DNA of 64,000 nt from Escherichia coli (GTDB taxonomy: Bacteria; Pseudomonadota; Gammaproteobacteria; Enterobacterales; Enterobacteriaceae): the NCBI RefSeq assembly GCF_046105845.1, contig NZ_CP151004.1, one strand, 5' to 3'. Under the pieces are notes generated by a model. That model was not told the DNA's origin. It saw nothing but the letters and a program-made list of their open reading frames with translations, and searched no databases. Of this stretch, positions 9,037 to 37,097 are shown piece after piece. The position numbers and the translations under genes are program-made. Within the stretch, counting starts at the first letter, position 1, and each line of letters opens with the position of its first letter.

Positions 9037-9800
9037 GTCAGCCATTATTATCTGTTAACGGCCTGATGATGCGCTTCGGCGGCCTGCTGGCGGTGAACAA
9101 CGTCAATCTTGAACTGTACCCGCAGGAGATCGTCTCGTTAATCGGCCCTAACGGTGCCGGAAAAACCACGGTCTTCAACTGCCTGACCGGATTCTACAAA
9201 CCTACCGGCGGCACCATTTTACTGCGCGATCAGCATCTGGAAGGTTTGCCGGGGCAGCAAATTGCCCGCATGGGCGTGGTGCGTACCTTCCAGCATGTGC
9301 GTCTGTTCCGTGAAATGACGGTGATTGAAAACCTGCTGGTGGCGCAGCATCAGCAACTGAAAACCGGGCTGTTCTCTGGCCTGTTGAAAACGCCTTCTTT
9401 CCGTCGCGCCCAGAGCGAAGCGCTCGACCGCGCCGCTACCTGGCTTGAGCGCATTGGTTTGCTGGAACATGCCAACCGTCAGGCGAGTAACCTGGCCTAT
9501 GGTGACCAGCGCCGTCTTGAGATTGCCCGCTGCATGGTGACGCAGCCGGAGATTTTAATGCTCGACGAACCGGCAGCAGGTCTTAACCCGAAAGAGACGA
9601 AAGAGCTGGATGAGCTGATTGCCGAACTGCGTAACCATCACAACACCACTATCTTGTTGATTGAACACGATATGAAGCTGGTGATGGGGATTTCAGACAG
9701 AATTTACGTGGTCAATCAGGGGACGCCGCTGGCAAACGGTACGCCGGAGCAGATCCGTAATAACCCGGACGTGATCCGTGCCTATTTAGGTGAGGCATAA
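9033..9800 (+). CDS. livG: Branched-chain amino acid ABC transporter ATPase LivG
   Basis: 255 aa. Walker [10 protein letters not shown], Walker B LMLDEP. Overlaps the livM stop. Confidence 0.95.
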
Positions 9801-12404: not shown

Positions 12405-13292
12405 ATGTCATCATCCCGTCCGGTGTTCCGCTCGCGCTGGCTGCCCTATTTGCTGGTCGCGCCGCAGCTCATCATCACCGTTATCTTTTTTATCTGGCCT
12501 GCGGGCGAAGCGTTGTGGTACTCGCTGCAAAGCGTCGATCCGTTTGGTTTCTCCAGCCAGTTTGTCGGCCTGGATAACTTCGTCACGCTGTTTCATGACA
12601 GCTACTATCTCGACTCCTTCTGGACGACGATAAAATTCAGCACCTTTGTCACCGTCAGTGGTTTGCTGGTGTCGCTGTTCTTTGCGGCGCTGGTGGAGTA
12701 CATCGTGCGCGGCAGCCGTTTCTATCAAACCTTGATGCTGCTGCCGTATGCCGTGGCTCCCGCCGTTGCCGCCGTATTGTGGATCTTCCTGTTTAACCCT
12801 GGTCGCGGGCTGATCACCCATTTTCTCGCTGAGTTCGGCTACGACTGGAACCACGCGCAAAACAGCGGTCAGGCGATGTTTCTGGTGGTGTTTGCCTCGG
12901 TGTGGAAGCAAATCAGCTACAACTTTCTGTTCTTCTATGCCGCGCTGCAATCCATTCCCCGTTCGTTGATCGAAGCCGCAGCCATCGACGGTGCAGGCCC
13001 GATTCGCCGCTTCTTTAAGATTGCGCTGCCGCTTATCGCTCCGGTGAGTTTCTTCCTGCTGGTGGTGAACCTGGTGTACGCCTTCTTCGACACCTTCCCG
13101 GTGATCGACGCCGCCACGTCCGGCGGGCCGGTTCAGGCCACCACGACGCTGATTTATAAGATTTACCGCGAAGGCTTTACCGGACTGGATCTGGCTTCGT
13201 CTGCCGCGCAGTCGGTGGTGTTGATGTTCCTCGTCATCGTGCTGACGGTGGTGCAGTTCCGCTATGTTGAAAGCAAGGTGCGTTACCAATGA
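12405..13292 (+). CDS. ugpA: sn-Glycerol-3-phosphate ABC transporter permease UgpA
   Basis: 295 aa membrane protein. Operon context. Confidence 0.95.
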
Positions 13293-33324: not shown

Positions 33325-35790
<2,466 letters not shown>

Positions 35791-35807
35791 GTTCGCAAAG
35801 TGGTAAC

Positions 35808-35856
35808 TGCCGTGTGTTCTCTTAAAGCTATCGTTAATGGGCACACGGCATTTTTA
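35808..35856 (+). terminator. Terminator-like hairpin downstream of glgP
   Basis: tgccgtgtg ... cacacggca 9-bp stem followed by TTTTTAT. The loop is long (25 nt). Confidence 0.55.
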
Positions 35857-36272
35857 TATCAGATAAACGATATGTCATGACAATTTACAGACAGCATCGA
35901 TATATAATTCATATTTATTAATTTTTAATAATGATTCTCATCTGAGTATGTATCATACAATAAGCATTATAAATAACCAATAAATTATTTATTATATTTA
36001 TATATTGCCCCACTCTTCAGTTATCCTGTCTAAAATAAATCTCTTTGTTTTCAAATGACTGTATTTTTATATAAAGTCAATCATTGCGAGCATGGATTCT
36101 TTTAGTTATATTACCAAGCAGCTCATATAATATTTTCAAGCCATTCTATCTCTTATTTTTTCTGTGGTTAACTACACCAGCTTTATTCATTTAAATAATT
36201 TGACTTATTAAAGCTGAATGTAAAAATAATCGCCAATATTGCTTGGATTTTTTAACAAAAGGAAAGGTATAA

Positions 36273-36977
36273 ATGAAATTCAATCTATCTAATTTATCAG
36301 CAGTTTTACTCGCATCAGGTATGCTGATGTCAACTGCGGTAACCGCTGCGCCAGGCGATGCATCACAATTTGGTGGTGCGGATACAGACTGGAGCACCGT
36401 TGATTATCCAAAACTCACCGATATGGATAACAACACCGATGCGATGGGCGGAAACATCCGCTTTACTGGTCGTGTGGTTAAAGCGACGTGTAAGGTTGCT
36501 ACAGAATCGAAACAGATTGAAGTGGTACTGCCAGTCGTACCTTCTAACGCTTTCACGGGCATTGATACCGAAGCAACGGGCGCCAGTAACCAGACTGACT
36601 TCAACATTAAACTGACTGATTGTAGCAATACGGACAGTCAAAACATTGAATTTCGTTTTACTGGCGTAGCAGACGGTGCCAACCAGACGCTTGCCAATGA
36701 AGTGGAAGGAGCTACTGATGCTGATGGTACTGGCGAAGCGGGAGCTACAGGTGTAGGGATTCGTATTTATTCTAAAAACACGACAACTGATGGCCTGATT
36801 AAACTGAACACACAAACTCCCCAGGGGAGTAGTTCTTCAGCAGCCTACGTGATTCCTGGCGATGCTGCCACTCATGATTTTACTGCGGCATTTACCGCGG
36901 GCTATGCTCAGAACGGTAGTACCGTTGCACCAGGTCTGGTGAAATCGACGGCAAGTTTCGTCGTGCTGTACGAATAA
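36273..36977 (+). CDS. Fimbrial major subunit candidate (type-1/FimA-like pilin family, atypically long)
   Basis: 234 aa with signal peptide. Conserved pilin Cys pair (ATCKV ... LTDCSN). C-terminal beta-strand ASFVVLYE typical of chaperone-usher subunits. Strong SD AAGGAAAGG. First gene of the fimbrial island. Confidence 0.85.
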   Translation: MKFNLSNLSAVLLASGMLMSTAVTAAPGDASQFGGADTDWSTVDYPKLTDMDNNTDAMGGNIRFTGRVVKATCKVATESKQIEVVLPVVPSNAFTGIDTEATGASNQTDFNIKLTDCSNTDSQNIEFRFTGVADGANQTLANEVEGATDADGTGEAGATGVGIRIYSKNTTTDGLIKLNTQTPQGSSSSAAYVIPGDAATHDFTAAFTAGYAQNGSTVAPGLVKSTASFVVLYE

Positions 36978-36989
36978 TTACAGCAAGAT

Positions 36990-37023
36990 AATTTCAGGTT
37001 ACAGTTACTTGTAACCTGAAATT
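36990..37023 (+). terminator. Perfect 14-bp stem-loop after the major subunit gene (probable intra-operon attenuator)
   Basis: aatttcaggttaca-gttact-tgtaacctgaaatt, 12 nt after the stop codon. No strong U-tract follows, so partial termination or a stability element is more likely than a full terminator. Confidence 0.6.
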
Positions 37024-37097
37024 AATATTACATGTTTATTTGTAATAAATAGACATGCATCAGTAATTACAATTAATTTCATCTACAAGGATGCAGT

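Follow-up and report, generated by a model that had tools for sequence, protein, structure and literature searches.

The spacer between aufA and aufB, the first two genes of the aufABCDEFG chaperone-usher fimbrial operon of Escherichia coli, contains a hairpin whose existence exceeds chance expectation and which is single-copy and specific to auf. Comparison among auf lineages shows, within the limits of such comparison, purifying selection on this element as a sense-strand RNA helix. We propose, with a probability of roughly 0.55, that the hairpin is a stem-loop in the polycistronic auf mRNA that acts as a barrier to 3′ decay and thereby enriches the aufA message; we infer this role and its effect on subunit stoichiometry by analogy with malE, papA and fimA. 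The DNA analysed, called the window throughout, is a stretch of 64,000 nucleotides (contig NZ_CP151004.1).

The auf operon of the window

The host locus is flanked by glgBXCAP (glgP) upstream and glpD downstream, and its gene order (major subunit, chaperone, usher, two minor subunits, second chaperone, adhesin; Table 1) is that of the auf locus of strains 536 and CFT073, which likewise lies between glgP and glpD, so that order and position both identify it as Auf. In CFT073, c4214 (aufA) adjoins glgP (PMC5320621) and aufABCDEFG corresponds to c4207-c4214 (PMC5956150). A sequence-only reading of the window had placed the hairpin after a major pilin gene, and the upstream open reading frame is indeed aufA: its product carries the fimbrial domain listed in Table 1 and is 97% identical to P0007, a protein listed by NCBI as 'Auf fimbriae major fimbrial subunit AufA'. 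Which start codons the distal genes use is uncertain, because the longest open reading frames overlap (aufC and aufD by 10 nt, 40474-40483; aufE and aufF by 59 nt, 41520-41578) and RefSeq begins aufD and aufF later in strain ETEC1738 (at 12415 and 13446 of its locus, L002).

Table 1. Positions of the auf genes and of the elements in the aufA-aufB spacer, numbered from the first nucleotide of the window.
Feature	Position	Strand	Remarks
aufA, major fimbrial subunit, 234 aa	36273..36977	+	PF00419 Fimbrial E 2e-21; RefSeq CDS in ETEC1738
Hairpin	36989..37024	+	arm 1 36989-37003, loop region 37004-37009, arm 2 37010-37024; kept in seven variants
AU-rich spacer 3′ of hairpin	37025..37079	+	holds second hairpin 37031-37057; candidate endonucleolytic entry zone
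aufB ribosome-binding region	37080..37097	+	Shine-Dalgarno AAGGA 37087-37091 inside small hairpin CAUCU/GGAUG 37080-37093
aufB, periplasmic chaperone, 250 aa	37098..37850	+	PapD_N, PapD_C domains; RefSeq annotation
aufC, outer-membrane usher, 863 aa	37892..40483	+	PapC_N, Usher, PapC_C domains
aufD, minor subunit	40474-41046	+	Pfam domains
aufE, minor subunit	41054-41578	+	Pfam domains
aufF, second chaperone	41520-42320	+	Pfam domains
aufG, putative adhesin, large terminal subunit	42313-43464	+	Pfam domains

The genes of the operon respond together. In CFT073, aufA-G are jointly affected by TosR (RNA-seq log2FC 2.6-6.6), with similar fold changes for aufA (5.3), aufB (5.4) and aufC (5.6); these values give no sign of a discontinuity after aufA and are silent on absolute ratios (PMC5956150). 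A consensus promoter scan called no promoter-like site in the aufA-aufB spacer. At the upstream end of the operon, around 36264-36286, where the aufA ribosome-binding site and start codon lie, the reverse complement of AAGGTATAAATGAAATTCAATCT matches at all but one base the NsrR motif AAATTGAATTTCATTTATACCTT, which has been described for a ChIP-seq peak located on c4214 (aufA) of CFT073 (PMC5320621), and the NsrR site seems to be retained in the diverged window allele. At the downstream end, the B2-type islet of strain 536 includes, between aufG and glpD, three further hypothetical genes (L001 16396-18493), which are absent from the window (43465-43795); in the near-identical ETEC1738, RefSeq annotates only a frameshifted fragment there.

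A stable hairpin after the aufA stop codon

The sequence-only reading had described a perfect 14-bp inverted repeat, 12 nt past the stop codon and lacking a strong U-tract, and each of these particulars holds. Arm 1, aatttcaggttaca (36990-37003), is separated by gttact (37004-37009) from arm 2, tgtaacctgaaatt (37010-37023), and 12 nt (36978-36989) lie between the aufA TAA (36975-36977) and the first arm. The repeat is in fact one T-A pair longer (36989/37024), with two 15-nt arms that are 100% complementary, and in the window allele it is a perfect DNA palindrome. As RNA, the stem ends in a G.U pair (37004/37009) next to a 4-nt UUAC loop, giving 15 Watson-Crick pairs and one G.U pair, 16 in all. 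Folding energy, one of the properties by which the earlier reading proposed to check the element, is strong: the 36-nt hairpin has a predicted ΔG of -18.5 kcal/mol, the mean for shuffled sequences being -3.9 (z -7.25; 0 of 200 shuffles as good), and it dominates the predicted fold of an 81-nt context (-24.3 kcal/mol, z -7.06). No other perfect inverted repeat of at least 14 bp with a loop of 3-40 nt occurs in the 64-kb window; the number expected by chance is 0.02 per window (mean of 100 dinucleotide shuffles of 64 kb). A U-tract is missing from the 3′ flank, AAUAUUACAUGUUUAUUUG, and a consensus terminator scan made no call at the site. The element thus has the stem-loop of an intrinsic terminator and lacks its U-tract (some 5 U at least within 8 nt directly 3′ of the stem).

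Other structures are predicted in the spacer. The second hairpin of Table 1 is AU-rich and not conserved in sequence, but a second hairpin is predicted in other lineages as well. In the minimum free energy folds of three lineages, the stop-codon region (UAAUUAC or UAAAUA) pairs with sequence 3′ of the first hairpin to form an enclosing outer helix (36975-36981 with 37063-37069 in the window; 9769-9774 with approximately 9821-9826 in L001), which may be only a coincidence of AU-rich sequence. The aufB Shine-Dalgarno region TTCATCNACAAGGATGC is kept in both E. coli alleles (window and 536) and in Citrobacter freundii, and the small stem predicted over it might damp the initiation of aufB translation.

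Distribution and copy number

Auf is present in 768 of 5426 complete E. coli genomes (~14%), including CFT073, 536 and an ST69-labelled strain, and occurs as two alleles. The spacer of the window allele is found in 210 of the 5426 genomes, an ST69-labelled strain among them, and the B2-type allele (CFT073, 536, ATCC 25922, 83972), whose spacer is 99% identical in CFT073, in 558. Between the alleles, aufA has about 77-78% nucleotide identity and aufB 78% amino acid identity. Orthologues available for comparison are few, since Auf is missing from the species representatives: a scan based on AufA, with one genome per species, gave 36 pattern matches, none of which was confirmed as a relative. The hairpin is nevertheless present in every auf lineage recovered, in seven sequence variants: the window allele; a one-base variant (OX030728); a variant with a shortened stem base (L216); the B2 allele (536 and CFT073); a one-base variant of the B2 allele (L092); C. 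freundii (L003); and a separate lineage (L006 and L218). A decayed auf locus was also encountered, in E. coli HH97 (L223; NZ_CP116409.1 612468-612681), where unrelated sequence replaces aufA and the chaperone gene is annotated as a frameshifted pseudogene. There, a 2-nt deletion lies within arm 1 of the hairpin, which is consistent with a loss of constraint, as a single anecdotal case.

The spacer of each allele occupies one locus per genome. The '2 places' counted for the window allele most simply reflect a palindrome matching its own opposite strand, as judged from the counts. The arm sequence was not found elsewhere in the window and the hairpin sequence is absent from 80 paralogous fimbrial operons, and on these grounds (one copy per genome, none at the 80 paralogous loci) identity with a REP/BIME element was rejected. 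A search of 35700-44000 against Rfam (E<=1) gave no match at the hairpin; the sole match was ES036 (CssrF) at 43843-43885 (+ strand, 46.8 bits), between aufG and glpD. This match sits inside a dispersed REP/BIME-like repeat (43796-43969), which E. coli genomes carry at a median of 20 places each, and the sRNA call therefore probably reflects the repeat.

A metagenome scan with the degenerate palindrome TTTCRGGTTRC...GYAACCYGAAA, a query biased by design, returned at least 120 loci. Among the matches listed, four were auf, all of them the window allele, and the others were unrelated palindromes or repeat arrays. Many of the metagenome loci (L100, L101, L129, L140, L172 and others) carry arrays of short repeats, for example (C/T)CTG(A/T)AAC, beside the palindrome; these arrays are an unrelated repeat family.

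Conservation of the stem as a sense-strand RNA helix

Identity at fourfold-degenerate sites is 37-41% between the window and 536/CFT073 and 27-37% between the window and C. freundii, so that synonymous sites between auf lineages are essentially saturated, and apart from the hairpin and the Shine-Dalgarno region the spacer is rich in indels and unalignable between lineages. Against this background, 23 of the 24 bases of the core stem (12 pairs) are identical between the window and 536, and 19 of 24 between the window and C. freundii. The binomial probability of 23 of 24 at p=0.41 is about 2e-8 by our arithmetic. Wider counts for the window and 536 are 26 of 30 over the 15-bp arms and 27 of 32 over all 16 pairs.

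Pairing is kept along with sequence. The 12 core pairs are paired in all 84 cells of the seven-variant comparison (84/84), and pairing in register is found in 93.8% of cells, a figure that falls to 24-48% if each base is instead matched with a partner displaced by 1-3 columns. Both members of a pair have changed at four pairs, three of which lie within the core: U-A to A-U (L006), A-U to G-C twice (C. freundii), and U-A/C-G at the base. One stem position reads A-U in E. coli, G.U in L006 and G-C in C. freundii. In shuffle controls, the covariation score was reached by 13 of 500 and the number of both-sided pair changes by 24 of 500, which, given seven related sequences, is suggestive and short of decisive. 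One-sided changes give G.U or U.G at eight stem positions in some lineage, as against A.C at one (P about 0.02 if the two were equal), and in every variant that is not a palindrome (five of the six variants folded) the fold of the + strand RNA is favoured over that of the - strand by 3-6 kcal/mol. The loop is free to vary, being 4, 4, 14 and 4-8 nt long across lineages, with the 14-nt insert forming a small stem of its own, and the z of the hairpin is -6 to -9. The retained pairing, both-sided changes, wobble asymmetry and variable loop together point to a structure in the mRNA and not to a site in DNA.

These observations bear on the idea that the element functions in DNA, whether as an operator whose palindrome binds a dimeric regulator, as a cruciform or as a boundary of recombination. 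The perfect palindrome of the window allele, and a megablast alignment of the two E. coli alleles that stops just past the hairpin, could be read in that way. The spacing of the arms, however, varies from 4 to 14 nt, and the one-sided changes that give G.U pairs in the + strand RNA would be G-T or A-C mismatches in a cruciform and would break the symmetry expected by a dimer. The half-site, to our knowledge, is unlike the consensus of CRP, TyrR, Cra, Fur or LexA. We rejected an operator on account of the variable arm spacing and the wobble asymmetry, and a recombination or cassette boundary on account of the divergence of the whole operon between the alleles, in which aufB (at the amino acid level) differs as much as aufA. 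A DNA-level function of any of these kinds is very unlikely, and the least probable of the explanations considered.

Cleavage of the duplex by RNase III, which would uncouple aufA from aufB-G or destabilise aufA in the manner of sib-like retroregulation, is scarcely more probable. In its favour, a perfect duplex of 15-16 bp is unusual for a simple protective hairpin. Efficient substrates of RNase III are about 20 bp or longer, however, and the bottom three pairs of the auf stem are not conserved, leaving a core of 12-13 bp; in C. freundii, moreover, the helix is broken by an internal loop. The lack of conservation of the bottom three pairs also counts against a decay barrier, as does the AU-rich composition of the stem, in which 4 of the 16 pairs are G-C.

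Hairpins after the subunit genes of other fimbrial operons

In fimbrial operons, an excess of subunit is ascribed to stem-loops that lie at the 3′ ends of the subunit genes (PMC3373541, review-type). The papA mRNA has an RNase-resistant 3′ structure and malE a protective 3′ structure (PMC5927463). Like the REP hairpin between malE and malF and the 3′ structure of papA, the auf element is a stable hairpin immediately after a cistron whose product is needed in excess, within an operon that forms a single transcription unit, and is conserved in relatives. It differs from the malE-malF REP in being single-copy, auf-specific, AU-rich and perfectly paired rather than dispersed. The papA element, for its part, is described as a terminator structure.

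At fim, the sRNA FimR2 is released from the fimA 3′ UTR in an RNase E-dependent manner (PMC9723502). FimR2 of E. coli and Salmonella resembles the auf hairpin in position, lying about 10 nt past the major-subunit stop codon (the annotated sRNA starts 10 nt downstream of fimA in K-12), in being a stem-loop, and in preceding the next fimbrial gene (fimI). The auf hairpin might then be the core of a comparable 3′-UTR sRNA, cut from the auf mRNA as a fragment of approximately 45-50 nt that would reach from the stop codon to 37024-37030 and act in trans. In keeping with this idea, the primary sequence of the stem is unusually conserved despite the saturation of synonymous sites, and the stem is followed at once by AUAUU (37026-37030), which resembles an RNase E site but is a weak and degenerate motif. 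The two elements differ, however, in that the auf hairpin has no sequence similarity to FimR2 and matches no Rfam family, and the fimA spacer folds weakly (z +0.25). In addition, the auf loop lacks a CsrA-type GGA, neither the loop nor the unpaired 5′ stretch (36978-36988), the places expected to hold seeds or CsrA sites, is conserved, and expression of auf in vitro is low. Release of a trans-acting sRNA is in our judgement improbable.

The Ycb/Elf fimbrial type is described as a close relative of Auf and as mutually exclusive with it (PMC3559732). In K-12, the subunit-chaperone spacer elfA-elfD (ycbQ-ycbR) also carries a strong hairpin (ΔG -19.6, z -5); that hairpin is unrelated in sequence to the one in auf, is GC-rich (CCCCUCCAG...CUGGAGGGG) and is followed by a delayed U run, which makes it more terminator-like. 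More distant operons give a mixed picture. A scan based on AufB recovered 80 loci, all of them paralogues (43-52% identity) and none with a homologous hairpin. In about 63 of 79 paralogous operons no more than some 25 nt separate the chaperone gene from the subunit gene, leaving no room for such a hairpin, and such an element is therefore not obligatory for this fimbrial class. Where the spacer is long, a hairpin often follows soon after the stop codon, in some cases with a U-tract (Buttiauxella L059/L066, z -3 to -5.2; Lonsdalea). Because z among these long-spacer paralogues ranges from -5.2 to +0.8, and some of the hairpins are unremarkable, a post-subunit hairpin is better termed frequent than universal.

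These relatives bear on the main rival to a decay barrier, namely a transcriptional attenuator. Partial termination at the hairpin, either intrinsic but non-canonical or assisted by NusA/NusG or Rho, would let fewer polymerases into aufB-G. A stable hairpin directly behind the aufA stop codon is suited to such a role, terminator-like hairpins with U-tracts occupy the same position in Buttiauxella (L059/L066) and Lonsdalea (L017/L023/L027), the elfA-elfD hairpin has its delayed U run, and PMC3373541 calls elements of this kind rho-independent stem-loops. The intrinsic terminators of the Buttiauxella and Lonsdalea paralogues, however, share position and hairpin with auf and differ in the U-tract, which follows the stem in no auf variant (tails AAUAUUAC, AAAUUAUU, AGCGUAUU and UUCAGCGG). 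Its absence argues against a classical attenuator or terminator, as does the silence of the terminator scan; the spacer downstream of the hairpin is not C-rich, and aufB-G rely on read-through. We regard attenuation as unlikely to be the principal function, while giving it more weight than any other alternative. The sequence-only reading had assigned the hairpin to the place where fim and pap operons carry an attenuator or an mRNA-stability element. The analogy of position is upheld by the review cited above (PMC3373541), papA, FimR2 and elfA-elfD, and selection on the RNA agrees with it; the classical attenuator, for want of the U-tract, is the unlikely part.

Proposed role of the auf hairpin

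The auf element has the features of a protective stem-loop: a stable hairpin just 3′ of a high-demand cistron in a co-transcribed operon, with a conserved sense-strand structure. As a decay barrier, it would be passed by most RNA polymerases, which would continue into aufB-G; polymerase must largely read through, because no lineage has a U-tract and the spacer has no promoter-like site. An endonucleolytic cut downstream, in the AU-rich spacer or within aufB or aufC, would then provide an entry for PNPase and RNase II, which would degrade the message in the 3′-to-5′ direction back to the 16-bp stem and stall there. A longer-lived monocistronic aufA message would remain, and AufA would be made in excess over the chaperone, the usher and the minor subunits. 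The hairpin may contribute further by causing some pausing or weak termination, as a decay barrier and attenuation are compatible and not mutually exclusive.

Conservation of the primary sequence of the stem, as judged between these lineages, exceeds what structure alone would strictly need. A speculative and rather improbable explanation is that the stem sequence is itself functional, either released as a FimR2-like RNA or bound by a sequence-specific RNA-binding protein, in a way that would link Auf to other surface structures. A function of this kind would explain why 23 of 24 core bases are unchanged between alleles whose synonymous sites are saturated.

We found no prior description of the auf hairpin in the accessible literature, which excludes the original Auf paper (Buckles et al. 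2004). Two reviews of fimbrial regulation (PMC11316696, PMC9820224) do not mention stem-loops or terminators, and a study of sRNAs in UTI89 has nothing on auf. The element is a well-supported, covarying addition to the hairpins that follow pilin genes and leaves the current understanding of fimbrial regulation unchanged. What goes beyond the routine, on the evidence of the alleles compared, is a stem sequence that is near-invariant across saturated synonymous divergence. For annotation, the hairpin represents a conserved non-coding RNA structure outside any Rfam family; for the biology of Auf, it offers a concrete candidate for the element by which the major subunit could come to be made in excess over the assembly proteins.
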